Under the pieces are notes generated by a model, which saw only the letters and a program-made list of their open reading frames with translations, ran no database searches and was not told where the DNA came from. 64,000 bases of DNA from Mobula hypostoma (lineage: Eukaryota), in contig NC_086097.1 in NCBI RefSeq assembly GCF_963921235.1, forward strand, positions 123,320,001-123,384,000, in the 5' to 3' direction. Positions 20,365 through 63,544 of the stretch are shown piece after piece; the stretch's first letter is position 1, and every line of letters begins with the position of its first letter. The position numbers were made by a program, and so were the translations under genes.

Positions 20365-20584
20365 AAACACAAACTTCTGCTACAGATGCTGAAAATCTGT
20401 CAAGTACACACAAAATGCTGGAGGAACTCAGCAGGTCAGGCAGCATCTATGGAGAGGAATGAAGAGTCGATGTTTTGGGCCGAAACCCTTCATCAGATCT
20501 CAGCCTGAAATGTTGACTGTTTATTCCTCTACACAGATGCTGCCTGACCTGTTGAGTTCCTCCAGCAGTTTGTGTGTATTTGAC
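20365..20584. mobile_element. Penelope-derived fold-back mini-element (older subfamily)
   Basis: Left arm GTCAAGTACACACAAAATGCTGGAGGAACTCAGCAGGTCAGGCAGCATCT pairs with right arm AGATGCTGCCTGACCTGTTGAGTTCCTCCAGCAGTTTGTGTGTATTTGAC; arms join within degenerate hammerhead sequence. Confidence 0.75.
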
Positions 20585-32949: not shown

Positions 32950-35104
32950 GAGCAATCCCTTGACTACTCACAATTAAAGAAGAAAACTTAAGACAAATAT
33001 TTACAATTGAAGTAAGGAATAGATCTCAAAGTCTAGAAATAGAATCTGTTGAAGATGATAGCAATCACGTAGAAATGAAGTTTAACTCTCTGAAGGATGC
33101 CTTGGTAGAATCAGCAAAGTCAGTGATTCCTAAAAAAGAAAAAAGCACAAAGAATAAATGTTTGACAGATGAAATCAAAAATCTAATGGAAGAAAGGAGA
33201 CGGAAGAAAGCAAATCCGATGGAATATAAGTCCTTAGATAAAAAAGTTAAAAGCTTAAGTCAAAAAGCCAAAGAAGAATGTTTAAATCAGGAATGTGAGC
33301 AACTAGAAAGAATACCTATTATTGATCCAAAAAGGATGCATCAACAAATCAAGAATATCACTGCTGAAGAACAGGTGGATGTATGAAAAAACGGTACTAT
33401 TATCGTGGAAAAAGATGTGATTATGAACAGATGGACTGAGTATATTCAGGAATTGTTTGAAGACGATCGAGGCGAAAAAACAGAAATTAAAAAGAACATT
33501 GAAGATTCAAGTATTGTAAAATCTGAAGTTTGTAATGCAATAAATAAGATAAAGAAAGGAAAGGCAGCAGGTCCTGATGAATTAGTAATAGAACGAATTA
33601 TCGCCCTTGAAGATTATGGAATTGAAAAACTTACTGATTTAATCAATGACATTTATGAGACTGGAATAATACTAGAAGAGATGAAAAAAATCAGTATTAT
33701 CACTCTTCCTAACAAACCTGCAGCAATAGAATGTGAATTACATAGGACCATAAGTTTAATGAGTCGTATCACTAAGATACTTCTAAGAATTGTGATGAGA
33801 AGAGCTAAAAGTAAGATACAAGCTGAAATAGGTAAAGAACAATGTGATTTTGTGAAAGACAAAGATACAAGAAACGCGATATTGATGTTAAGAATATTAT
33901 CAGAACAAACTATTCAAGTGCAAAAAGATTTGTTTGTTTGTTTTATTGACTACACAAAAGCATTTGGTAAAGTGAAGCACAATAAATTATTTGAAATATT
34001 ACAGGAAACTCTAGATCTAGACTTGAAAGACCTCCACCTAATCAGAAATCTGTACTGGGAACAAACTGACGCTGTAAGAATAGATGGAGAAGTGAGTCAG
34101 TTTACGAAAATCAAGAGAGGCATTTGACAAGGGTATGCTTTCTCCCCTGATTTGTTTAATGTGTACAGTGAAACAATACTACAAAAAATAAGATACATCT
34201 TGGAAATCAAAGTTGGTGGTGAAAACATCAATAATTTCAGATATGCGGATGACACTGTGTTAATTGCAAGTACAGAGGAAGAACTACAAAACTTAATTGA
34301 TACAGTTGTTGAAGAAAGTGCAAAAATGGGTCTATTTATCAATCACAAAAAGACAGAATGTATGGTCATATGCAAAAAGAAGGAGAATCCTATCCGCAGG
34401 CTGAAAATAAACGGGGAGGACATAAAACAAGTACAGAACTTTTGCTACTTAGGAAGCTGGGTGACATCAGATGGCAGGTGCGACATTGACATCAAAAGAA
34501 GAATAGGGATGGCAAAAGGCACCTTTACGAGAATGAAGAGTATAACGTCAACACTAAACTAGGCATGACAACCCACCTCAGAGTACTGAAATATTACGTT
34601 TATCCAGTTATGTTATATGGATCAGAATGTTAGACAATATCTAGTAACATGAGGAAACAAATTGAAGCAGCAGAGATGTGATTTTTGAGGAGGATGCAAA
34701 GAATATCATGGATGAAACGAACATCTCTCTCTCTCTCTCACTCTCTCCGTCTTGTTTTACGGCGGTTGGCACCCAGCTTATTGGTGCGTTACCGAAACGA
34801 ATATCCAACGAAGATGTCATGAACAGAGCAAGCACAAAAAGAGAAATAACATATGAGATCATGAAAAGGCAACGTAACTTCATTGGACTTGTGATTAGGA
34901 AAGAGGAGTTAGCATGCACGGTAATTATGGGAAAGATTGAAGGGAAGAAAGCAAGAGGAAGGCAAAGACAAATAATAATGGAAACAGCAGCCAGAGAACT
35001 GGAAATGAATACCAATGAATTGATCCACTTGACCCAAAACAGGAGTGTGTGGGCCATGGCAGTCAAAGCTCAAACTGGGCACGGCACCTGATAATGATGA
35101 TGAT
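32950..35104 (+). mobile_element. RTE-clade LINE, 5'-truncated, inserted in a Tc1-like element
   Basis: ORFs 33075-33386, 33405-34127, 34152-34562, 34678-35091 with GKAAGPD, RTISLMS, CFIDYTKAF, NFRYADD, FCYLGS; (GAT)n tail; Tc1 sequence on both sides (32895-32945, 35105-35300). Confidence 0.9.
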
Positions 35105-36999: not shown

Positions 37000-39900
37000 A
37001 TGCCTAAGGACAAAGTAAAATTCAATTCTTTTAATGTCAATGGGCTGTTGAATCCAGTCACGCGCAGTAAAATTCTATCAAAAATGAAAAAGAACAAGAT
37101 CATGTAGTATATTTACAGGAAACTCACAAGTGATAATGAGCATGGAAAATTAAAAAGAATGGGCTTCACTAATTTGTTTTTCTCCTCATATAAATCAGGA
37201 CATAGAAGAGGAGTTGCTATTCTTAATCGCAAGTAAACCAAATTTTGAAAAAGTATTCGAAATGGGAGATAAGGAGGGCAGATATATTCTGCTAAGGGGG
37301 AATATAGATGGAAATCCAGTTACTTTATTGAATATATACGCACCCCCAGGAAGTGATATTAGCTTCTTCCAGAAAATTACTAAAATTATGGTAACGGAAA
37401 CAGAAGGTCTCTTGATACGTGGGGGAGACTTAAATTTACAATTACAACTAAAGTTAGACTCTTCCAATAGAAAAACTTATGAAACAAAGTCTTTACATAA
37501 GAAAGTTAACACTCTTTCTGAGGATGTTGGTCTAATTGATATATGGAGGGACCTTTTCCCCGACAGAAGGGATTACACTCATTATTCTGCAACCCGCCCC
37601 CCCATTCCATAGAGACAAGAATAGACTATTTCATAACATTTGGAAAAGATAGAGACACAATAATCACCTGTGGAATTGGGACAATAGATGTACCTATATA
37701 TTTATACCTACCTATATATTTATCTGACCTACAACTAAAGAATACTACAGTATTTGGAAACTAAATTCAAGTCTACTCATGATCCCTATTTTAAGGAACA
37801 AATTAAAAAAGAAACTGGTCTTTACTTAGAGTTCAATGATAATGGAGAGGTTTCACCTCCCATTCTATGGGATACTCTGAAGGCTGTCTTAAGAGGGAAA
37901 ATTATAGCGATATCTTCATATACGAAAAAAATAAGGAATAGAACATCAGAGGAATTACAAAATAAGCTGAAGGAACCAGAAAAAAAAACACAAATTGAGT
38001 TTGGCACAGGATACACTAGAGGAAATTCTAAAAATTAGGAATGAAATTAATAGTTTGGCTACACAAGAAATTAGAAAAAATTTAATATTTCTGAAACAGA
38101 GACACTATGAAAGTGGATCTAAATCTATGAAAATACTGGCGTGGAAACTGAAAAAAAAGATAGCAGAAAATACAATTCATAGAATAAGGGATCTAAGAAC
38201 AAAAGTGATAAAAAATAAGCTAAGTGAAATTCAAGAAGCTTTTGAAATGTTTTACAAAACTCTATATTCCAAAATTAAAGGGGGGAAGCATAACCCAAAT
38301 TGACATCTTCCTGAATTCTTTAGAGTTACTCACTTTAAGCAAAGGACAAAATAGAACAATGACTGCTGACATAATTGAAGCTGAACTAAAAACTGCAATT
38401 AGTAGGCTTAAATTAAGCAAGTCACCAGGATCAGATGGATATACGGCAGAGTGGAATAAACAGTTTAGAAGTGAGTTAATTCCTGTTTTACTCCCCACAC
38501 CGAACTGGACCCTAAGAAAGGGGCAAATGCCACCCAGCTGGAAGGAGGCGATAATCTCAGTATACCGAAAGAAGGCAAAGATAAAATGGAATGTGGGTCA
38601 TTTAGATCAATATCTGTTGTTAATGTAGATTATAGAATATTAACCTCCATCAGGGCCAAACGATTAGAAGAGTTTCTACCCGCACTGATACATAATGATC
38701 AGACAGGTTTTATACAACAACACCAAACACAAGACAATATACCAAAAACACTTCACATTATGGATCATATTAAAAAATGAAATTGAAGCAATAGTGATAA
38801 GCATGGATGCTCAAAAGGCATTTGATTCGCTTAACTGGAATTTTCTTTCCAGAGTTTTACATAGATTTGGTCTTCATGATGCAATTATTAAAACTCTACA
38901 GGCACTATACGACAATCTTATTGCCAGGATTAAAATCAATGGATATTTTGGCATCATTATGCCAAAAGATTTGGCAAAATTATCAGAATGCAATTATCAG
39001 CCTATATATATAAAAAAATTAAGGAAGATATAACAAGATGGAACCTAATTCTTTTTCTTGGTCTCAGTTCAAGGATTGAATCTATTAAAATGAATATACT
39101 GCCCAGACTACTATATCTCTTTCAGACCCTACCAATAGAGATTAACCAAAATCAATTCAATGAATGGAACAAGATGCTATCAAGATATATATGGCAAGGT
39201 AAAAGGCCTAGGGTTCATCTCAAAACTTTACAATTAGCCAAAGAAAAGGGGGGATGGGGCCTACCTTCTCTTAGAGATTATTGTTTTTCAGCACAGTTGA
39301 GAGCTGTGATATGCTGGTGCAACCCATCATATGATGCTCAATGGAAAAACATTGAGGAGAGGATACTTTCCATCCCCATACAGGCAATTTTGGCTGATAA
39401 CAACGTACAAAGTTACATAAATAATACCGACAACCCCTGGGTGAAATGGACTCTTAAAATATGGAAAACTATTATAAAAGAACATAAACTAGAGAAAGAC
39501 ATTGCAATTCTTAAATGGTGTGCATATGACTCGGATTTTACACCGAATAAACTGGATGCTAGATTTAAGGACTGGACAGCTAAAGGAATAACAGCTATTT
39601 GCAATATAATGAAAGAAGGAACACTGTTCAGTTTTGAAACGCTCAAACAGAAACACATTAGAAAAACAAGACTTTTACTGGCATTTACAGACGCGACAGT
39701 ATGTTAATAGGACAGTTAAAAATGTAACCAAGGCAAGTACATGTCTGATAGAGCTATTTAGAAAAGCATATAATTCAGACAATGGAAGTAGAATAACCTC
39801 AAGCGTTTATAAGGGTTTGTCAAATCTTAAGACACATTCGACTTCATACATTAAAACAAAATGGGAGAAGGAAGGAGGGATAATAGTATCTGAGGAAGAC

Positions 39901-43216: not shown

Positions 43217-44137
43217 CTACAGTGCAGTGACTGAGGGAATACACAGAGGTGGTTTGGGGGCGAACAGAATGACTGATTAGCTTAACTGCCTGGGTGAATG
43301 AACTTTTAAGATACTGTAGTGTGATTTTTCTTTTAATACCCTATAACGCTTTCCTGAAGAGTGCTTTTGGAAAAGGCAGTTCTCTGGGTAGGTAGTGTCT
43401 GCAATAATTTTTTCTGCGCATCTCTTTGTCCCGGACACATATAATTCCTACTGCTTAATTTGCCATGGTTTTTGTGTATCAGCAGAGGATGTTGTACTGA
43501 ACCAGAAGGGATAGACGCACCAAGTGTGGGAACCTGACTAGTACACTAATCAGAACAAAGATAAATATAAAGGGTAACGTACTGGCTTTTCTTTCCCTCC
43601 CCTTTGTTCCAACTTCTGCTTCCACAAGGTAGCATTTGTTTCCACAGCTCTCTTGATTGAATAATTAGGCTTAAAATCAAAATCAGAAATCAGGTTTATT
43701 ATCACTGACATATATTGTGAAATTTGTTGGTTTTGTGGCAGCAGTTTGGAGCAATACATAAAAAAATACTCTAAGTTACAATAAGGAAAATATATTTAAG
43801 AGGAACTTGGAACAATTTTCTGCAACCCACAGAATGTCGCCAATGATCACTGGCGCCATCTTGTGTTGAATAAAGAGGATAACTACACTTGCCTGTCATT
43901 GAAATGTTCCCACAACCAATGATCTCACTTTAAAGACTCTTTATCTCATTATCTCTTGCTCTTGTTATTTATTGCTACTTGCTTTTATTTACATTTGCAC
44001 GGTTTGTTCCCTTCTGCACTCAGGTTATCCTTTCATCGAAAACAACAGGAATTCTGCAGATGCTGGAAATTCAAGCAACACACATCAAAGTTGCTGGTGA
44101 ACGCAGCAGGCCAGGCAGCATCTGTAGGAAGAGGTGC

Positions 44138-44173
44138 AGTCGACGTTTCAGGCCGAGACCCTTCGTCAGGACT
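44138..44173 (-). ncRNA. Minimal type I hammerhead ribozyme (inverted pLTR copy)
   Basis: Exact reverse complement of the motif at 45008-45043. Confidence 0.8.
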
Positions 44174-44436
44174 AACTGAAGGAAGAGTGAGTAAGGGATT
44201 TGAAAGTTGGAGGGGGAGGGGGAGATCCAAAATGATAGGAGAAGACCCGGAGGGGGAGGGATAGAGCCAAGAGCTGGACAGGTGATAGGCAAAAGGGGAT
44301 ACGAGAGGATCATGGGACGGGAGGTCCGGGAAGAAAGACGGGGGGGGGGGGACCCAGAGGATGGGCAAGAGGTACATTCAGAGGGACAGAGGGAGAAAAA
44401 GGAGAATGAGAGAAAGAATGTGTGCATAAAAATAAG

Positions 44437-44754
44437 TACTTCACCTGTGAGTCGACTGGGGTGATATACTGCGTCCGGTGCTCCCGATGTGGCCTTTTAT
44501 ATATTGGCGAGACCCAACGCAGACTGGGAGACCGCTTTGCTGAACATCTACGTTCTGTCCGCCAGAGAAAGCAGGATCTCCCAGTGGCCACACATTTTAA
44601 TTCCACATCCCATTCCCATTCTGACATGTCTATCCACGGCCTCCTCTACTGTAAAGATGAAGCCACACTCAGGTTGGAGGAACAACACCTTATATTCCGT
44701 CTGGGTAGCCTCCAACCTGATGGCATGAACATCGACTTCTCTAACTTCCGCTAA
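44437..44754 (+). pseudogene. GIY-YIG endonuclease domain of the Penelope-like element (C-terminal fragment, open frame)
   Basis: FTCESTGVIYCVRCSRCGLLYIGETQRRLGDRFAEH..PVATHF..H..EQHLIFRLGSLQPDGMN; no upstream RT and no native start codon. Confidence 0.9.
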
Positions 44755-45007
44755 GGCTCCACCTCCCCCTCGTACCCCATCTGTTACTTATTTTTATGCA
44801 CACATTCTTTCTCTCACTCTCCTTTTTCTCCCTCTGTCCCTCTGAATATACCTCTTGCCCATCCTCTGGGTCCCCCCCCGCATCTTTCTTCCTGGACCTC
44901 CTGTCCCATGATCCTCTCGTATCCCCTTTTGCCTATCACCTGTCCAGCTCTTGGCTCTATCGCTCCCCCTCCAACTTTCAAATCCCTTACTCACTCTTCC
45001 TTCAGTT

Positions 45008-45043
45008 AGTCCTGACGAAGGGTCTCGGCCTGAAACGTCGACT
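45008..45043 (+). ncRNA. Minimal type I hammerhead ribozyme
   Basis: AGTC-CTGACGA-AGG(GTCTCGG)CCT-GAAA-CGTC-GACT: intact core, stem I AGTC/GACT, stem II AGG/CCT, palindromic ACGT stem III, predicted cleavage after C45039. Confidence 0.8.
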
Positions 45044-45209
45044 GCACCTCTTCCTACAGATGCTGCCTGGCCTGCTGCGTTCACCAGCAACTTTGATGTG
45101 TGTTGCTATCCCTTCATCGATCCTGTTACTATTACCATAGAACCATAGAAACTACATACACAGAAACAGGCCTTTTGGCCCTTCTTGGCTGTGCCGAACC
45201 ACTTTCTGC

Positions 45210-48129
45210 CTAGTCCCACTGACCTGCACACGGACCATATCCCTCCATACACCTCCCATCCATGTATCTGTCCAATTTATTCTTAAATGTTAAAAAAGAA
45301 CCCGCACTTACCACCTCGTCTGGCAGCTCATTCCATACTCCCACCACTCTCTGTGTGAAGCCCCCGCTAATGTTCCCTTTAAACTTTTCCCCCCTCACCC
45401 TTAACCCATGTCCTCTGGTTTTTTTCTCCCCTTGCCTCAGTGGAAAAAGCCTGCTTGCATTCACTCTATCTATACCCATCATAATTTTATATACCTCTAT
45501 CAAATCTCCCCTCATTCTTCTACGCTCCAGGGAATAAAGTCCTAACCTATTCAACCTTTCTCTGTAACTGAGTTTCTCAAGTCCCGGCAACATCCTTGTA
45601 AACCTTCTCTGCAGTCTTTCAAACTTATTTATATCCTTCCTGTAATTTGGTGACCAAAACTGAACACAATACTCCAGATTCGGCCTCACCAATGCCTTAT
45701 ACAACCTCATCATAACATTCCAGCTCTTATACTCAATGCTTCGATTAATAAAGGCCAATGTACCAAAAGCTCTCTTTACGACCCTATCTACCTGTGACGA
45801 CACTTTTAGGGAATTTTGTATCTGTATTCCCAGATCCCTCTGTTCCACTGCACTCCTCAGTGCCTTACCATTAACCCTGTATGTTCTACGTTGGTTTGTC
45901 CTTCCAACGTGCAATACCTCACACTTGTCAGTATTAAACTCCATCTGCCATTTTTCAGCCCATTTTTCCAGCTGGTCCAAGTCCCTCTGCAGGCTCTGAA
46001 AACCTTCCTCACTGTCTACCACACCTCCAATCTTTGTATCATCAGCCAACTTGCTGATCCAATTTACCACATTATCATCCAGATCATTGATATAGATGAC
46101 AAATAACAATGGACCCAGCACTGATCCCTGTGGCACACCACTAGTCACAGGCCTCCACTCAGAAAAGCAATTTTCTACCACCACTCTCTGGCTTCTTCCA
46201 TCGAGCCAATGTCCAATCCAATTTACCACCTCTCCATGTATACCTAGCGACTGAATTTTCCTAACTAACCTCCCATGCGGGACCTTGTCAAAGGCCTTAC
46301 TGAAGTCCATGTAGACAATATCCACTGCCTTCCCTTCATCCACTTTCCTGGTAACCTCCTCGAAAAACTCCAACAGATTGGTCAAACATGACCTACCACG
46401 CACAAAGCCATGTTGACTCTCCCTAATAAGCCCCTGTCTATCCAAATGCTTGTAGATTCTGTCTCTTAGTACTCTCTCCAATAACTTACCTACTACTGAC
46501 GTTACGCTCACCGCCTATAATTTCCCGGATTACTTTTCGATCCTTTTTTAAACAACGGAACAACATGAGCCACTCTCCAATCCTCCGGCACTTCACCCGT
46601 AGACAGCGACATTTTAAATATTTCTGCCAGGGCCCCCGCAATTTCAACACTAGTCTCCTTCAAGGTCCGAGGGAACACTCTGTCAGGTCCCGGGGATTTA
46701 TCCACTTTAATTTTCCTCAAGACAGCAAGCACCTCTTCCTTTCCAATCTGTACAGTTTCCATGGTCTCACTACTTGATTCCTCAAATCCATAGATTTCAT
46801 GCCAGCTTCCTTAGTAAATACAGACGCAAAAAACCTATTTAAGATCTCCCCCATTTCCTTTGGTTCTGCACAAAGCCAACCACTCTGATCTTCAAGAGGA
46901 CCAATATTATCCCTTACAATCCTTTTGCTCTTAATATACTTGTAAAAGCTCTTTGGATTATCCTTCACTTTGACTGCCAAGGCAACCTCATGTCTTCTTT
47001 TTGCCCTCCTGATTTCTTTCTTAAGTATTTTCTTGCACTTCTTATACTTCTCAAGCACCTGATTTACCCCGTTTCCTATACATTTCATACAACTCCCTCT
47101 TCTTCTTTATCAGAGTTGCAATATCCCTTGAGAACCAAGGTTCCTTATTCCTATTCAATTTGCCTTTAATCCCGACAGGAACATACAAACTCTGTACTCT
47201 CAAAATTTCCCCTTTGAAGGCTTCCCACCTACCAATCACATCTTTGCCAGAGAACAACCTGTCCCAATCACACTTTTTAGATCCTTTCTCATTTCTTCAA
47301 ATTTGGCCTTCTTCCAGTTCAGAACCTCAACCCTAGGACCAGATCTATCCTTGTCCATGATCAAATTGAAACTAATGGTGTTATGATCACTGGAACCATT
47401 GTGCTCCGCTACACAGACTTCTGTCACTTGCCCTAATTCGTTTCCTAACAGGAGATCCAATATTGCATCCCCTCTAGTTGGTCCCTCTATATACTGATTT
47501 AGAAAACTTTCCTGAACACATTTTACAAACTCTAAACCATCTAGACCCCTAACAGTATGGGAGTCCCAATCAATGTATGGAAAATTAAAATCCCCTACCA
47601 CCACAACTTTATGTTTCTTGCAGTTGCCTGCTATCTCTCTGCAGATTTGCTCTTCCAAGTCTTGTTGACTATTGGGTGGTCTGTAATACAATCCCACTAA
47701 TGTGGCCATACCTTTCCTGTTTCTCAGCTCCACCCATAAGGACTCAGTAGACAAGCCCTCTAATCTGTCCTGCCTGAGCACTGCTGTAATATTTTCCCTA
47801 ACAAGCAATGCTACTCCCCCACCTTTCATTCCTCTGCCTCGATCACATCTGAAACATCGGAACCCTGGAATATTAAGCTGCCAGTCCTGCCCCTCCTGCA
47901 GCCAAGTTTCACTAATTGCTACAACACCATAATTCCACGTGTCAATCCACGCCCTCAACTCATCCGCCTTTCCCGCAATACTCCTAGCATTGAAATATAT
48001 ACACCTCAGAAGATTTTTACCACCACTCACAACCTTTCTATCAGCGGATTTGCTTAAACTTTCAATATCATTTATTTTCACCCCAGCCACACTGTCAGCT
48101 CTGGCACTCTGGTTCCCATCCCCCTGCAA
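45210..48129 (-). pseudogene. CR1 ORF2 (APE endonuclease plus RT) in five frames
   Basis: YFNARSI, ISETW, VGDFN, SDH, KSPGPD, YMDFSKAFD, GVPQGSVLGP, ISKLADD. Confidence 0.93.
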
Positions 48130-48131
48130 AT

Positions 48132-49084
48132 CTAGTTTAAAGCCTCCCCAATAGCACTAACAAACCTCCCAGAAAGGATATTGGTCCCCCTGTGGTTCAA
48201 GTGTAACCCGTCTCTCTTGTACAGGTCCCACCTGCCCCAGAAGAGGTCCCAATGATCCTGAAATCTGAAACCCTGCCCCCTACACCAGTTCCTCAGCCAC
48301 TTGTTTCTCCTCCAGAGCATCCTATTCCTACCCTCACTGGCACCTAGCACAGGTAGCAATCCTGAGATTACCACCCTTGAGGTCCTGTTTTTCAACTTCC
48401 TACCAAGCTCTCTATACTCACTGTCCAGGACCTCTTCACTCTTCCTTGCTATGTCATTGGTACCGATGTGCACCACAACATCTGGCTGGTCACCCTCCCA
48501 CTTCAGAATGTCATGCAATCGATCAGAGACATCCTTGACCCTGGCATCTGGGAGGCAACAAACCATCCTGGATTCTCTGTCACGACCACAGAACCTTCTA
48601 TCTGCACCTCTAACTATCAAGTCCCCTATCACTACCGCTCTCCTCTTTTCCCCCCTCCCTTCTGCACTGCAGAGCCAGACTCAGTGCCAGAGATCCGGCT
48701 ACTGCAGCTAGTCCCAGATAAGTCATCCCCCCCAACAGTATCCAATGCGTTGTTGAGGGGAATGGCCACAGGGGAACCCTGCTCTGCCTGCTCTTTCCTC
48801 TTCCCTCGCCTGACAGTGACCGAATTTCCTGTCCTCTGCTCCTTTGGCGTAACTACCTCCCTGTAGCTACGATCTATAATCTCCTCATTCTCCCGAATGA
48901 TCCGCAGGTCATCCAGCTCCTGCTCTGGTTCCCTAATGCGGTTTGTCAGGAGCTGCAGCTGGATGCAGTTCTTGCAGGTGTCGTTGTCAGGGACACCGGA
49001 GGGCTCCCTGACTTCCCACATCCTGCAAGAGGAGCATTCCAACATCCTGCCTGGCATTCTCTCTACGCTAGACAATCTGAACAA
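48132..49084 (-). pseudogene. CR1 ORF1 (CxxC zinc finger, coiled coil, SGNH esterase), frameshifted
   Basis: CSSC...CKNC, then IGDLIVRG (GDS motif altered), VVVHIGTND, DGLHLN. Confidence 0.88.
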
Positions 49085-51624: not shown

Positions 51625-53435
51625 GACCATAAGACTATAAGACAAAGGAGCAGGAGTCGGCCATTCAGACCATTGAGTCTGCTCCGTCATTTTATCATGA
51701 GCTGATCCATGAGACTTGTTCTGGAGCTGCTCCAGCCTATGGTCAGGCCACACTTAAATCCCCTCCAGTTCGCCTACCAGCCCCGACTAGGAGTTGAGGA
51801 TGCCATCGTCTACCTGCTGAACCGTGTCTACGCCCACCTGGACAAGCCAGCGAGCACTGTGAGGGTCATGTTTTTTGACTTCTCCAGTGCGTTCAATACC
51901 ATCTGCCCTGCTCTGCTGGGGGAGAAGCTGACAGCGATGCAGGTGGATGCTTCCCTGGTATCATGGATTCTTGATTACCTGACTGGCAGACCACAGTACG
52001 TGTGCTTGCAACACTGTGTCCGACAGAGTGATCAGCAGCACTGGGGCTCCACAGGGGACTGTCTTGTCTCCCTTTCTCTTCACCATTTACACCTTGAACT
52101 TCAACTACTGCACAGAGTTTTGTCATCTTCAGAAGTTTTCGGATGACTCTGCCATAGTTGGATGCATCAGCAAGGGAGATGAGGCTGAGTACAGGGCTAC
52201 GGTAGGAAACTTTGTCACATGGTGTGAGCAGAATTATCTGCAGCTTAATGTGAAAAAGACTAAGGAGCTGGTGGTAGACCTGAGGAGAGCTAAGATACCG
52301 GTGACCCCTGTTTCCATCCAGGGGGTCAGTGTGGACATGGTGGAGGACTACAAATACCTGGGGATACGAATTGACAATAAACTGGACTGGTCAAAGAACA
52401 CTGAGGCTGTCTACAAGAAGGGTCAGAGCCGTCTCTATTTCCTGAGGAGACCGAGGTCCTTTAACATCTGCCAGACGATGCTGAGGATGTTCTACGAGTC
52501 TGTGGTGGCCAGTGCTATCATGTTTGCTGTTGTGTGCTAGGGCAACAGGTTGAGGGTAGCAGACACCAACAGAATCAACAAACTCATTTGTAAGGCCAGT
52601 GATGTTGTGGGGATGGAACTGGACTCTCTGACGGTGGTGTCTGAAAAGAGGATGCTGTCTAAGTTGCATGCCATCTTGGTCAATGTCTCCCATCCACTAC
52701 ATAATGTACTGGGTGGACACAGGAGTACATTCAGCCAGAGACTCATTCCACCGAGATGCAGCACAGAGTGTCATAGGAAATCATTCCTGCCTGTGGCCAT
52801 CAAACGTTACAACTCCTCCCTTGGAGGGTCAGACACCCTGAGCCAATAGGCTAGTCCTGGACTTATTTCATAATTTACTGGCATAATTTACATATTACTA
52901 TTTAACTATTTATGGTTCTATTACTATTTATTATTTATGGTGCAACTGTAATGAAAACCAATTTCCCCCGGGATCAATAAAGTATGACTATGACTATGAC
53001 TATTCTCCCATTTAGTCCCACTCCCCCACCTTCTCACCATAACCTTTGATGCCCTAGGTACTCAGATACCTATCAATCTCTACCTTAAATACACCCAATG
53101 ACTTGGCCTCCACTGCCGCCCGTGGCGACAAATTCCATAGATTCACACCCCCTGGCTAAAAATATTTCTTCACATCTCTGTTCTGAATGGGCGCCCTTCA
53201 ATCCTTAAATCATGCCCTCTCATACTAGACTCTCCCATCATGGAAACAACTTTGCCACATGCACTCTGTCCATGCCCTTCAACATTCGAAATGTTTCTAT
53301 GAGGTCCCCCCTCATTCTTCCAAACTCCAAGGAATACAGTCCAAGAGCTGACGAACATTCCTCATATGTTAACCCTCTCATTCCCGGAATCATTCTGGTG
53401 AATCTTCTCTCTACCCTCTCCAACGTCAGCACATC
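51625..53435 (-). mobile_element. CR1 3' fragment split by the Rex-like insertion
   Basis: LERVERRFTRMIPGMRGLTYEE..; its tail lies at 51625-51708 on the other side of the insertion. Confidence 0.8.
51709..53003 (+). mobile_element. Rex1/Babar LINE, young 5'-truncated copy
   Basis: PLQFAYQP, MFFDFSSAFNTI, GAPQGTVLSPFLF, QKFSDD, YKYLG; AATAAA plus (TATGAC)n tail. Confidence 0.9.
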
Positions 53436-55896: not shown

Positions 55897-56371
55897 TGGA
55901 CAGTTACCGAGGGAACGGTGGGGGTGGGCAAACTGGAATGGTTGACCAGCTTAACTGTCTGGGTGAAGAAACTTTTGAGATGGCGTGAAGCTTTTGTTTT
56001 AATAGCCCCATAGCACTTTCGAGAAGGGAGATTTTCGAAAAGAGAGTTCGCAGGGTGGGTGTGTCCACAATGATTTTTCTTGCCCGTTTCTTTCTCGTGG
56101 ACACATTTCGAGTCCTGCAGTATTGGTAGACTGCGGCCAGGATATTTTCAGTTGACCCGACAGTTCGCTATAGTTTTTGTATATTGCATTATATCTTCAA
56201 ATTCACTTATGACATTCGTATAATGATATAGATCTAACTGAGGGCATCCTGCACCATGGGGAATGTACAGACCTGGTATACTGCATATTTATTGTACATG
56301 CCTTTGGTGCACGTAGGACAATGGGTTACACTGAGTAATATGGAACGTAGAGAGGGTCTGTGGTCTTTCTG

Positions 56372-57408
56372 AGGCTACGTCCACACTACACCAGATAATT
56401 TTGAAAACGCTGGTTTTGAGTAAAAACGACAGGCATCCACTCTAAGCGTTTTTCAAAATATCTCTGTCCACATTAGACGGATATTTGGGCAAATCTCCTC
56501 CTACTGGGCATGCGCAGGACACACAGAAAACAAGCGAAGAGGAAACTGTATACTTGGTGCACGTTTGTCCAGTTATGGAGTAGAAAAAGTTAAAAGGAAT
56601 TGCTCTTGGCTCTCGCGCAGGAGGACTTAAAAAAAAACAAATACTGGAGCGTATGGAGGCAGCTGACAGGGAGCTCACGGACAATATGACCCGGCTGACG
56701 ACGAACATTGAAAAACTGACTAACTCCGTTGCATTAATAAAGTACCTTGTTAAATGTATAAAACATGCCTGCATCAGTGTTATCTTGTATTTCCATACAA
56801 TGTTACATTAGGCTGTTACACATCTATTGTCAGAGAAGTACTTGCAAGTTCTTTGTTCTTGATCCTCCAAAATATTCTGCATGGAATTTGAACTGGAGGT
56901 GGCGGAGGGTGTTTTCTGTCCTTACCTTCATACAAGCAAGGACAGAAAACAGGGCAAAGTGAGTATACTTATTTATTCAGTAAGCTATGGGTCAAAGTAT
57001 TTGGTGAGTACATTTCTAACTCTTCTGGCTTCAGTCTCGTTGCTGTCTGTTCTGAAATTGTCAGGTTCTGCGAAGCGCAGAATCAAATATCGCTGTGATG
57101 ACTGTACGCTCTAGTATCAACTGTTTGGCGACAGTAAAGTAGTAATAATAATAATAATAATAAAACAATGAAATGCCGTGCTGCCACCATCTGTTCCGGC
57201 ACGTCATGACAGCGGTTTTAAAAAGCTCCGGTTACCCCGTACACACCGCAAAGGATATTAGGTGTTTTCAGATTTATTCATTCTGGAGACCGTTTCTGAA
57301 AATCTCCGTTTTCAGTGGCTGAAAATGCCATTTCAGTGTGGACGGAAGGTCAAAACGAAGAGAAAAAGCTTTGTTTTCAAAATTTTCCGGCGTAGTGTGG
57401 ACGTAGCC
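56372..57408 (+). mobile_element. Non-autonomous PIF/Harbinger-like DNA transposon, copy A
   Basis: TIR GGCTACGTCCACACTAC / GTAGTGTGGACGTAGCC; flanks CTG / CTA; convergent coding remnants inside. Confidence 0.8.
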
Positions 57409-57756
57409 CTATTCAACAGTGAAGGCAAACTGGCATTTGCTGCTTGTATTAATAGCCGTAGCAGAAATCTGTGTAAGGCACAGTTTATGGTCATTGTGGC
57501 CTGAGTGGGTACTAACGAAGCTCTGTGAATGTAATTATGGCCACAGTATGCCACATTTTTCAGTGCAGAGCTTTTACTGACCTGAAGACATCTGAAGTAC
57601 ATCAGCAGATTTTTCTCCTGAAGTCCTTTGTTGGGTAGCACTGCCAGCTCAGGGCTCCCTCTGACCATTCCTACTCCTTCAGCTTCTATCTAGCAAGATA
57701 TCGAATTCTTTCAATATTCCAAAAGCATGATACTGTACCCGATACTTTATAGTAAT

Positions 57757-57964
57757 TTTAACGCAAACAACAGGAATTCTGCAGATGCTGGAAATTCAAG
57801 CAACACACATCAAAGTTGCTGGTGAACGCAGCAGGTCAAGCAGCATCTCTAGGAAGAGGTACAGTCGACGTTTCAGGCCGAGACCCTTCGTCAGGACGTC
57901 GACTGCACCTCTTCCTACAGATGCTGCTTGGCCTGCTGCGTTCACCAGCAACTTTGATGTGTGT
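57757..57964. mobile_element. Penelope-derived fold-back mini-element with intact hammerhead and 14-bp TSD
   Basis: TSD TACTTTATAGTAAT at 57743-57756 and 57965-57978; arms nearly identical to the ends of the 44040 element; hammerhead on minus strand at 57863-57897. Confidence 0.88.
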
Positions 57965-58089
57965 TACTTTATAGTAATGGTGATCTCTTTTCCCACAGAA
58001 ACTGCACTCCCTGAAGGTGTCACCATCAGTTACCAATGGGCAGCACGGTAGTGTAGTAGTTAACACATCACTTCCCCACGCCAGCAATC

Positions 58090-58650
58090 AGATAGTTAAA
58101 TAGATAGATACTTTATTGATCCCAAAGGAAGTTACAGTGTCACAAGGAATACAAGTGCACAGATATAGAGGTTTGAAGAGAAGTAAGAATGAATAAAAAA
58201 TATAAGTTATCTCAAACAGTCTTAACAAGAGGAGGTCATCACTTTCCCAGCTATAGGTGGACTCATTATAGAGCCTAATAGCCGAGGATAAGAATGACCT
58301 CATATAGCGCTCTTTGGAGCAGTGCAGTTGTCTATTACTAAAAGTGCTCCTCTCTTCTGCCAAGGTGGCATGCAGAGGGTGAGAACCACTGTCCAGAATT
58401 GCAATGATTTTCCATAAGGTCCTTTGTTCTACCACAGTCTTCAGTGTGTCCAGTTTGACTCCTAGAACAGATCCAGCCGTTCTAATCAGTTTATTGAACC
58501 TGTTGGCATCATCCATTTTAATGCCATAGAAGATTGTACTGGCGACAACAGACTGGTAGAACATGTGAAGGAGAGGCTTACATACTCCAAAGGACCTCAG
58601 TCTTCTCAGGAAGTAGAGGCAACTCTGGCCCTTCTTGTACACAGCCTCTG
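58090..58650 (-). mobile_element. Rex1/Babar LINE 3' fragment, host of Harbinger copy B
   Basis: EAVYKKGQSCLYFLRRLRSF..HPLH; AATAAA plus (TATC)n tail; frame resumes beyond 62891. Confidence 0.85.
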
Positions 58651-59509
58651 GGTACGTCCACACTACGCTGGATAATTTTGAAAACAAAGCTTTTTCTCTT
58701 CGTTTTGACCTCCCATCCACACTGAGCCGGCGTTTTCAGCCCCCGAAAACGGAGATTTTCAGAAACGGTCTCCAGAGTGAATAAATCTGAAAACGCCAAA
58801 TATCTGTTGTAGTGTGTACGGGGTAACCGGAGAGATTTAAAAACGCTGTCATGACAACACCTCAACAACAACGCTTTTATGCTTCTGCTTGGTACTGCGC
58901 AAGGACTGCCATACGGCTGTTATAACGCGCAGTCGGTGTGAACGGCGTGAGAGTTAAATTGTAAACTGAGCTTTTTTGACTATTTAAAAACGCTGTCATG
59001 ACGTGCCGGAACAGACGGCCGCAGTTTCGCATTTCGTTGTTTTCTTGAATGCAACCCTCCACATAACCTAACAAGACGGCAACGAGACTGAAGCCAGAAG
59101 AGTTAGAAATGTACTCACCAAATACTTTGACCCGTAGCTTACTGAATAAATAAGTATACTCACTTTGCCCTGTTTTCTGTCCTTGCTTGTATGAAGGTGG
59201 TTTACCTATTTATGCAAGTACTTCTCTGACAATAGATGTGTCACAGCCTAATGTAACATTGTATGGAAATACAAGATAACACTGATGCAGACATTTAACA
59301 AGGTGCTTTATTACTGCAACAGAGTTAGTCAGTTTTTCAATGTTCATCGTCAGCCGGGTTATACTGTCCGTGAACTCCCTGTCGGTTGCCTCCATACGCT
59401 CCAGTATTTGTTTTTTTTAGTTTTAAGTCCTCCTGCAAGATCCAAGAACAATTCTTTTTAAGTTTTTCTACTCTGTAACTGGACAAACGCGCACCAAGTA
59501 TATCGTTTT

Positions 59510-62500
59510 GGGCTACTGAGGTGACCTTAAACTAGAATGGGCTACTGAGGTGACTTTAAACTAGAATGGTTGGGGGGTGGGAATCAAATTAAAGAGGCTG
59601 GGCGTGAGGAGGTTAGTTCACAACAGGGGGATGGGAACCAGTGCAGAGAGACAGAGGGGTGTAAAGTGAGGGTAGAAGCAAAAAGTACTAAGGAGAAAAG
59701 TAAAAGTGGCAGGCCGACAAATCCAGGGCAAGCATTAAAAAGGGCCACTTTTCAACATAATTGTATAAGGGCTAAGAGAGTTGTAAAAGAGCGCCTGAAG
59801 GCTTTGTGTGTCAATGCAAGGAGCATTCGTAATAAGGTGGATGAATTGAAAGTGCAGATTGTTATTAATGATTATGATATAGTTGGGATCACAGAGACAT
59901 GGCTCCAGGGTGACCAAGGATGGGAGCTCAACGTTCAGGGATATTCAATATTCAGGAGGGATAGACATGAAGGAAGGGGAGGTGGGGTGGCATTGCTGGT
60001 TAAAGAAGAGATTAACGCAATAGAAAGGAAGGACATAAGCCGGGAAGATGTGGAATCGATATGGGTAGAACTGCGTAACACTAAGGGGCAGAAGACGCTG
60101 GTGAGAGTTGTGTACAGGCCACCTAACAGTAGTAGTGAGGTCGGAGATGGTACTAAACAGGAAATTAGAAATGTGTGCAATAAAGGAACAGCAGTTATAA
60201 TGGGTGACTTCAATCTACATGTAGATTGGGTGAACCAAATTGGTAAAGGTGCTGAGGAAGAGGATTTCTTGGAATGTATGCGGGATGGTTTTTTGAACCA
60301 ACACGTCGAGGAACCAACTAGAGAGCAGGCTATTCTGGACTGGGTTTTGAGCAATGAGGAAGGGTTAATTAGCAATCTTGTCGTGAGAGGCCCCTTGGAT
60401 AAGAGTGACCATAATATGGTGGAATTCTTCATTAGGATGGAGAGTGACATAGTTAATTCAGAAACAAAGGTTCTGAACTTAAAGAGGGGTAACCTTGAAG
60501 GTATGAGACGTTAATTAGCTACGATAGACTGGCAAATGACACTTAAAAGGATTGATGGTGGATATGCAATGGCAAGCATTTAAAGGTTGCATGGATGAAC
60601 TACAACAATTGTTCATCCCAGTTTGGCAAAAGAATAAATCAAGGAAGGTAGTGCACCCGTGGCTGACAAGAGAAATTAGGGATAGTATCAATTCCAAAGA
60701 AGAAGCATACAAATTAGCCAGAGAAAGTGGCTCACCTGAGGACTGGGAGAAATTCAGAGTTCAGCAGAGGAGGACAAAGGGCTTAATTAGGAAGGGGAAA
60801 AACGATTATGAGAGAAAACTGGCAGGGAACATAAAAACTGACTGCAAAAGCTTTCATAGATATGTAAAAAGGAAAAGACTGGTAAAGACAAATGTAGGTC
60901 CCCTACAGACAGAAACAGGTGAATTGATTATGGGGAGCAAGGACATGGCAGACCAATTGAATAATTACTTTGGTTCTGTCTTCACTAAGGAGGACATAAA
61001 TAATCTTCCAGAAATAGTAGGGGACAGAGGGTCCAGTGAGATGGAGGAACTGAGCGAAATACATGTTAGTAGGGAAGTGGTGTTAGGTAAATTGAAGGGA
61101 TTGAAGGCAGATAAATCCCCAAGGTCAGATGGTCTGCATCCTAGAGTGCTTAAGGAAGTAGCCCAAGAAATAGTGGATGCATCAGTGATAATTTTTCAAA
61201 ACTCGTTAGATTCTGGACTAGTTCCTGAGGATTGGAGGGTGGCTAATGTAACCCCACTTTTTAAAAAAGGAGGGAGAGAGAAACCGGGGAATTATAGACC
61301 GGTTAGCCTAACGTCGGTGGTGGGGAAACTGCTGGAGTCAGTTATCAAAGATGTGATAACAGCACATTTGGAAAGCGGTGAAATCATCGGACAAAGTCAG
61401 CGTGGATTTGTGAAAGGAAAATCATGTCTGACGAATCTCATAGAATTTTTTGAGGATGTAACTAGTAGAGTGGATAGGGGAGAACCAGTGGATGTGGTAT
61501 ATTTGGATTTTCAAAAGGCTTTTGACAAGGTCCCACACAGGAGATTAGTGTGCAAACTTAAAGCACACGGTATTGGGGGTAAGGTATTGATGTGGATGGA
61601 GAATTGGTTAGCAGACAGGAAGCAAAGAGTGGGAATAAACGGGACCTTTTCAGAATGGCAGGCAGTGACTAGTGGGGTACCGCAAGGCTCAGTGCTGGGA
61701 CCCCAGTTGTTTACAATATATACTAATGACTTGGATGAGGGAATTAAATGCAGCATCTCCAAGTTTGCGGATGACACGAAGCTGGGTGGCAGTGTTAGCT
61801 GTGAGGAGGATGCTAAGAGGATGCAGAGTGACTTGGATAGGTTGGGTGAGTGGGCAAATTCATGGCAGATGCAATTTAATGTGGATAAATGTGAAGTTAT
61901 CCACTTTGGTGGCAAAAATAGGAAAACAGATTATTATCTGAATGGTGGCCGATTAGGAAAAGGGGAGGTGCAACGAGACCTGGGTGTCATTATACACCAG
62001 TCATTGAAAGTGGGCATGCAGGTACAGCAGGCGGTGAAAAAGGCGAATGGTATGCTGGCATTTATAGCGAATGGTATGCTGGCATTTATAGTGAGAGGAT
62101 TCGAGTACAGGAGCAGGGAGGTACTACTGCAGTTGTACAAGGCCTTGGTGAGACCACACCTGGAGTATTGTGTGCAGTTTTGGTCCCCTAATCTGAGGAA
62201 AGACATCCTTGCCATAGAGGGAGTACAAAGAAGGTTCACCAAATTGATTCCTGGGATGGCAGGACTTTCATATGAAGAAAGACTGGATGAACTGGGCTTG
62301 TACTCGTTGGAATTTAGAAGATTGAGGGGGATCTAATTGAAACGTATAAAATCCTAAAGGGATTGGACAGGCTAGATGCAGGAAGATTGTTCCCGAAGTT
62401 GGGGAAGTCCAGAACAAGGGGTCACAGTTTGAGGATAAAGGGGAAGCCTTTTAGGACCGAGATTAGGAAAAACTTCTTCACACAGAGAGTGGTGAATCTG

Positions 62501-62715: not shown

Positions 62716-63544
62716 CGTTTTCTCTTCGCTTGTTTTCTGTGTGTCCTGCGCGTGCCCAGTAGGAGGAGATTCGCCCAAATATCCATCTAATGTGGACAGA
62801 GATATTTTGAAAAACGCTTAGTGTGGACACCTGTCGTTTTTACTCGAAACCGGCGTTTTCAAAATTATCCTGCGTAGTGTAGACGTAGCCTCTGTATTGC
62901 CGCCATTCACCGATCAGTATCACGTTATTACCAGTATGTGAAACGTAGCAGAATTAATTGTGGTTCGGTGCCAAGCATAAAACACAGGACAATATCATAA
63001 CAGACAACACAATAGCAACCAACAATTTACAAGACAGTAGTGCAAACAGCCAAGAGCAATTGACAATTAGCAGAATGATGACATGTACAAACGTTAATAA
63101 TCAAACTTAAATAAATATGAACAGACACAATAATTACCAACAGAACAACAAGAACAGGAAAGGCCACTTAACAGATGTTGTGCCGGGAGTCGGATATTAC
63201 AGCTGAGTGAGTTTTGCTGGGATGCTGGATCGCTACAGGGAACAAGCTTCGGAGATGAGGTGTAATCCTGGTGTTGATAGGTCTGTAGCGTCTCCCTGAT
63301 GGCAATTTGGTGAATAGGTGATGCTGGTGTGGGTGGAGTCAGCAGTAACCTTTTCAGCTCTTTTCTTCGCTCTGGCAATAAACAGGTCTTTTAATGTCAG
63401 TAATTGAAAGCCAATGACCTTCTCCGGTGAGTGGACAACTCCCAGCAGTCTGGAGGGGTCAGCGGGAAACCAAATGGTACATTTTCCCTGTCAGCTTCCT
63501 CCAGGTGCTCCAGTTTCCTTCCACATTCCAAGGATATACGGCTA

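Follow-up and report, generated by a model that had tools for sequence, protein, structure and literature searches.

What does a fold-back insertion record when its two arms meet a few bases from the predicted cleavage site of a hammerhead ribozyme? In the 64-kb stretch of DNA analysed here (the window), a 208-bp segment (57757-57964) raises this question, and the possible answers include a cDNA end made by the ribozyme, a MITE-like family that propagates as a hairpin, and an aborted insertion joined by local sequence symmetry. Positions within the element are numbered on its sense strand, with +1 as the base after the predicted cut GUC·GAC (the dot marks the cut or, in palindromes, the centre).

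The segment is flanked by a perfect 14-bp direct repeat, TACTTTATAGTAAT (14 of 14 bases identical). A match of this length is expected about 1e-8 times per given offset, so a chance origin of this target site duplication (TSD) was rejected. The segment folds into a hairpin with arms of 74 nt (95% complementary), a loop of 24 nt and a fold z of -20.6. An element at 44037-45107 that encodes a GIY-YIG domain has a pLTR end to which both arms show 96-97% identity. Together with the 14/14 repeat, this bears out the original prediction of a perfect TSD around a fold-back of two Penelope pLTR ends. A one-sided tail is confined to the left arm (about 57760-57797). At the junction, the dinucleotide AC (57896-57897) is compatible with both arms, and ACGTC corresponds to pLTR positions -5 to -1. 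The right arm contains the cut site (57900/57901) without the catalytic core. From these features, the hairpin is a real, ordinary dead insertion of a Penelope-like element (PLE), and the proposal that it is a minimal abortive integration product remains its best reading.

Features of the hairpin insertion and related copies in the window
Feature	Coordinates	Strand	Description
TSD, left copy	57743..57756	+	14 bp, A or T at 12/14
TTT filler	57757..57759		neither arm matches; basis includes the tail-end consensus
Left arm	57760..57897	-	inverted 5'-truncated pLTR end, -31 to +107
Minimal hammerhead motif	57864..57897	-	predicted cut between 57867 and 57866
Arm junction	57895..57900		centred on palindrome GAC·GTC
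Right arm	57896..57964	+	direct 5'-truncated pLTR end, -5/-3 to +64, tail-less short end
TSD, right copy	57965..57978	+	first 5 bases equal the element's continuation at 4/5
Longer sibling insertion, same young family	44037..45107	+	inverted pLTR, ORF end, direct pLTR
Pyrimidine tract and AG	44172-44200 / 44980-45010	- / +	splice-acceptor-like
Older fold-back, related subfamily	20380..20580		arms from -28 and -17; junction AGA·TCT

The longer sibling identifies the source of the two arms. It consists of an inverted pLTR with tail (44037-44438, ending at +105), the 3' end of a GIY-YIG ORF (44440-44754) and a direct pLTR with its short end at +68, all flanked by a TSD of 12-13 bp with one mismatch. 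Its arms begin at -297 and -601 and meet at the palindrome AAGT·ACTT. Between short repeats, the direct pLTR has also lost 40 bp. Of the ORF, only the last 104 codons were identified in the window; they match Pfam PF01541 (E 1.8e-5; 25.4 bits against a cut-off of 22.6), and the translation (VIYCVRCSRCGLLYIG...EHL...THF) contains a CCHH motif with two cysteines between GIY and YIG, a pattern given as the definition for PLE endonucleases in the accessible part of the literature. With a GIY-YIG parent, the CCHH motif, the inversion, the tail and the TSD all present, the hairpin insertion belongs to the EN+ Penelope-like elements.

A profile search detected 13 arms or solo copies in the 64-kb window and none in three control sequences. 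For the older fold-back, which carries one long and one short end, no TSD was found, nor for nine older arms or copies in the window, so their boundaries are soft. Generally, the window fold-backs share one layout: an inverted 5'-truncated copy is adjacent at the 5' end in all three, and a long end is paired with a short end in all three. The tail, as the difference between these ends, is 43 nt in the hairpin (+107 vs +64) and 37 nt in the 44-kb sibling (+105 vs +68).

In four public runs from four organisms, 52,347 to 175,950 contigs matched an 805-bp stretch of the element, numbers that give no copy number; the Penelope-like family is extremely abundant. Pattern scans found no stretch in viral contigs and none in metagenome contigs, and with a looser pattern, none of the six loci returned (five in viral contigs, one in metagenome contigs) matched the element.

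The prediction that Penelope pLTR ends carry a minimal hammerhead was correct. In the hairpin, the motif comprises the helix I 5' strand GUC (57897-57895), the core CUGACGA, an extra unpaired A after position 9, a helix II of 4 bp, GAAA, the palindromic ACGU and the 3' strand GAC. Since ACGU stands without a loop III, this hammerhead needs a partner. The copy had been described as intact, which holds for the core, where CUGACGA, GAAA and GUC are complete, and fails for the rest. The arm junction removes the outer part of helix I and leaves 3 bp (GUC/GAC, -0.5 kcal/mol), compared with 5 bp in the full pLTR (UAGUC/GACUG, -3.1 kcal/mol). The 10.1-11.1 pair is G-U in place of the canonical G-C; the canonical C (place 44150) makes up about 20-23% of the depth in one pair of runs and 74% in the other pair. 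Moreover, in a predicted minus-strand transcript of the hairpin, the long stem pairs the cut site, the helix I probability is 0.000 and the hammerhead fold would cost 17 kcal/mol. The plus strand has no catalytic core. Judged by this folding, the hairpin copy is not an intact ribozyme. For the full pLTR, the predicted probability of helix I is 0.66-0.86 in a 52-nt context and 0.003 in a 128-nt context, and hammerhead activity there is uncertain. An Rfam search of the window (E up to 1) returned no hammerhead and three unrelated weak matches. As a separate observation, a 35-nt head-to-tail duplication of the hammerhead core (joint 44173 to 44139, -32 to +3) is present in all four runs, in 3, 2, 1 and 1 contigs; it would put two minimal cores in tandem, an arrangement allowing a dimeric ribozyme.

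The central claim was that the ribozyme cut sets the 5' end of the reverse-transcribed RNA. The coordinates behind it are right: the right arm starts at 57896-57898 (-5 to -3), and GACTGC begins at 57901. The claim itself is not supported by the same arm, which retains GTC (-3 to -1) and the shared AC (-5, -4) and thus reads through the cut. A model without cleavage, in which AC is common to the two arms, gives exactly the observed junction; the two simple models with cleavage do not. A start at +1 is found in none of the 13 arms or copies in the window. In the four runs, the best 15 of 479 joints, a set that leaves some joints uncounted, include six fold-back joints, seven deletions, one duplication and one normal continuity of the element. 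The six fold-back joints, three of which are marked 'between: not known', give 12 arm ends at +46, +24, +19, +10, -28, -59, -228, -232 and four places in the ORF; among these, none lies within 5 nt of the cut. Comparison with the GUC site, in window copies and in the best 15 of 479 joints, thus leaves the other junctions scattered.

Between the bins below and above the cut, depth rises and does not fall in all four runs (ratios 1.18-1.71). The tail end gives a loose-end peak of 434 and 435 contigs, one in each of two runs, and the cut site gives none among the best 24 rows (2,788 further rows exist). The missing peak is weak evidence, because the short end (+64 to +68), a real boundary, is likewise absent among these 24 and other rows lie beyond them. 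According to the accessible text of PMC11167929, cleavage is dispensable in vitro, where mutants of the hammerhead still insert normally, and no RNA reads had either of their ends at the hammerhead cut. Naiad PLEs without canonical hammerheads form the same inversions, according to the part of PMC8557442 available.

A role for cleavage can still be constructed if, after the hammerhead had cleaved the template, reverse transcriptase (RT) reached the new template end at +1 and GTC was then rebuilt by a 3-nt snap-back. Given the palindrome GTC·GAC, a snap-back from +1 would leave the same letters as read-through; the right arm does start 3-5 nt from the cut, and a PLE hammerhead cleaves in vitro with protein help in the experiments described in PMC11167929. 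This route takes more steps and has to treat the matching AC as a coincidence, and the scarcity of ends near the cut and the rising depth count against it, as does the weaker G-U pair, present in about 80% of depth in the two closest runs. We consider it very improbable.

Short sequence symmetry offers a simpler account of the join. At the centre of each of the three fold-back junctions in the window is a perfect palindrome of 6-8 bp (GAC·GTC, AAGT·ACTT and AGA·TCT), which random arm pairs give 3.0% of the time, or about 3e-5 for three, a rule drawn post hoc from n=3 junctions, the third of them old and with one uncertain base. If the longer arm at either young junction is continued with its own reverse complement, the result contains five nucleotides that recur where the shorter arm starts (ACGTC in the hairpin, TACTT at 44 kb). 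An arm that ends at -31 has two such 5-nt matches within 669 nt, and position -3 is the closer one. The hammerhead contains GUC twice, in the helix I strand and in the cleavage triplet, and the closeness of the junction to the cut follows from this repetition, for which sequence alone suffices. Most likely, the join beside the cut was caused by short sequence symmetry and not by ribozyme cutting. PMC3846280, as far as its text is available, also reports palindromes at head-to-head junctions of rotifer Penelopes. Counting against the palindrome rule, a recurrent joint between -28 and +19 (44123/44169) has a 3-nt microhomology (CAG) without a palindrome.

We conclude that the hairpin is probably a one-off, dead-on-arrival insertion of an abundant EN+ PLE, in the published layout of an inverted truncated copy plus tail, with copies of only about 70-140 nt. 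Starting from what is observed directly (arm identity, TSD, tail asymmetry, the palindromic junction and read-through of the cut), we infer the following course of events. The element's protein would make a 14-nt staggered cut in AT-rich DNA, and each target strand would prime a cDNA, with two internal start sites in use (about +107 and +64). Synthesis of both cDNAs would end prematurely, within the hammerhead or close to it. The left cDNA, which ends at -31, would then fold back on itself over 3 nt (GTC), and the ACGTC end gained in this way would anneal to positions -5 to -1 of the right cDNA, leading to microhomology joining. In vitro work in PMC11167929 shows, in the part accessible, that two internal RT start sites bound the tail, that both strands are cut and extended and that targets are AT-rich. 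Stalling of RT at the base of the hammerhead was rejected as the cause of the -31 end, by reasoning only: RT would reach the 3' side of the helix first.

The arms also bear on the number of templates. They differ at +6, +18 and +31; at all three the right arm agrees with the 44-kb copies, and the left arm has other common states. The differences at +6 and +18 are among the 40 best-supported variants of the family (33% and 45% of depth in one run), and two such matches would arise by chance with a probability of about 0.002. These base differences point to two pLTR template copies. Both arms share a T at +28, where the 44-kb copies have none, a pattern more easily reconciled with self-copying or later conversion than with two unrelated templates. 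Both templates may have come from a single tandem transcript, one at either end, and this would explain the shared T.

Alternatively, one cDNA could have primed itself to form a perfect palindrome centred at -31, and a later 28-bp deletion between ACGTC repeats would have left the 24-nt loop. Self-priming has been proposed from such palindromes (PMC3846280, in the text accessible), accounts for the T common to both arms and yields the exact hairpin junction, and the same logic yields the 44-kb junction with its 5-nt repeat. Arms made in this way should begin identical, and the three differences would require later gene conversion; we regard this origin as distinctly unlikely.

Could the hairpin nevertheless be a propagating, MITE-like non-autonomous unit mobilised in trans, as was also suggested? 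The family is extremely abundant (175,950 contigs in one run), pLTRs can mobilise passenger DNA in trans according to the portions of the cited literature at hand, and a different fold-back junction, the -28/+19 joint, is seen in seven contigs from three of the four runs. The hairpin's own junction (-31/-3) is shared by neither of the other two fold-backs in the window and is absent among the best 15 of 479 joints, a measure of sharing limited by the collapse of identical copies in contigs. The summed depth of the listed fold-back joints is 8-79, against millions for the family. The ribozyme, as modelled, cannot form on either strand of the hairpin, and the -28/+19 joint may recur through the CAG microhomology or through inheritance. 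Nothing points to amplification of the hairpin, and we find the idea of a propagating family hardly tenable. A DNA-type MITE was rejected as well, the hairpin ends being the RT-start ends of a PLE.

One pattern in the window might still connect the hammerhead with cDNA ends. About five of the 13 copies, including both short fold-backs, start at -27 to -34, a cluster with P < 0.004 under a simple decay model (corrected for bins); three of these are old TSD-less solos with boundaries that move by 10-14 nt depending on the reference or may stem from subfamily divergence, and three of the five were profile seeds. The -28 joint that recurs in three of four runs adds to this cluster. Just before helix I (before about -30), the young and the older subfamily both have a pyrimidine tract followed by AG (-32/-31), and in Drosophila Penelope the intron extends as far as the 5' end of helix I (PMC4209133, in the part available).

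It is conceivable, and on balance unlikely, that the hammerhead region sets where the family's cDNAs end in vivo, either by masked cleavage or by a processed end or RT stop at -28 to -32. Of these two variants, the processed end or RT stop is better supported than cleavage masked by snap-back. The chief complication for this reading is the divergence of subfamilies immediately upstream of the motif. The fall in depth upstream of the motif (0.38-0.57) and a loose-end peak at -32 (two runs) were rejected as proof of truncation because the consensus matches the upstream sequence of the older subfamily. If the reading is true, this large family would be a genome-wide record of ribozyme-linked processing and PLE inversion joining.

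The surroundings of the insertion are rich in other repeats. A patchy inverted repeat of about 850 bp lies around the hairpin (56551-57408 and 58650-59500, with blocks of 84-98%), which we take to resemble a DNA-transposon-like repeat, present as two opposed copies or as long arms. Sequences related to the end of the inverted repeat lie at 56371-56546 and 62717-62892. Inside its left block is a perfect 14-bp inverted repeat with a 14-nt spacer (56910-56951), and the right block has only one 14-bp arm (59171-59184). Broken large ORFs are located at 32964-35091, 37154-39707, 45210-48680, 51706-52540 and 59549-62336, and their translations, judged by eye, resemble the reverse transcriptase and endonuclease domains of LINEs. 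The same inspection of ORF translations in the window revealed no host gene.

By itself, the hairpin matters little, as a tidy minimal example of a layout known for PLEs. Its use is as a test case for how PLEs make head-to-head inversions and for whether PLE hammerheads cut in vivo, and the family is abundant enough for junction mapping in one assembly to address both questions. Joints centred on palindromes would favour joining by snap-back and microhomology; a peak of ends at +1 would count as evidence for cleavage in vivo.

Among known systems, non-LTR retrozymes (PMC7229834; bioRxiv 10.64898/2026.07.22.740005) are alike in being short, non-coding, hammerhead-bearing and PLE-related. As described in the accessible parts of these sources, they form head-to-tail tandems with a hammerhead per unit and a circular RNA, whereas the hairpin is head-to-head with one crippled motif. 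Identity with a retrozyme was rejected, as there is no tandem and the head-to-head arms hold one core only. No cleavage-defined PLE hairpin family was found described in the literature searched, which lay outside subscription papers and Repbase.

The minimal hammerheads of metazoan PLEs (PMC4209133) agree with the motif here in the core, the unpaired base after position 9, the palindromic 15.2-16.2 and the lack of loop III, and opposite-strand pairs of them 100-700 bp apart have already been noted in that work, as far as its text is available. In contrast to G10.1-C11.1 in that description, the subfamily here has G-U, with a helix II of 4 bp and, in the hairpin, a helix I of 3 bp; the known helix I has 4-5 bp and is able to form, and in our folding that of the hairpin copy does not form. 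Poseidon of Anolis (PAc; PMC11167929) shares the two RT start sites around the tail, the hammerhead just upstream, an AT-rich target, cutting and extension of both strands, and dispensable cleavage. It differs in that the accessible text is in vitro mechanism work without inversion joints.

The closest match is with the complex insertions of EN+ PLEs (PMC8557442; PMC3846280), for which the available text describes an inverted 5'-truncated copy and a one-sided tail of 30-40 bp. In those portions, the position of the junction is not tied to the internal symmetry of the hammerhead. The likeness extends to head-to-head pLTR ends, the one-sided tail, a TSD of variable length, the junction palindrome and a parent with a C-terminal GIY-YIG and CCHH motif; the difference lies in copies cut to about 70-140 nt without ORF sequence, which leave a bare hairpin.
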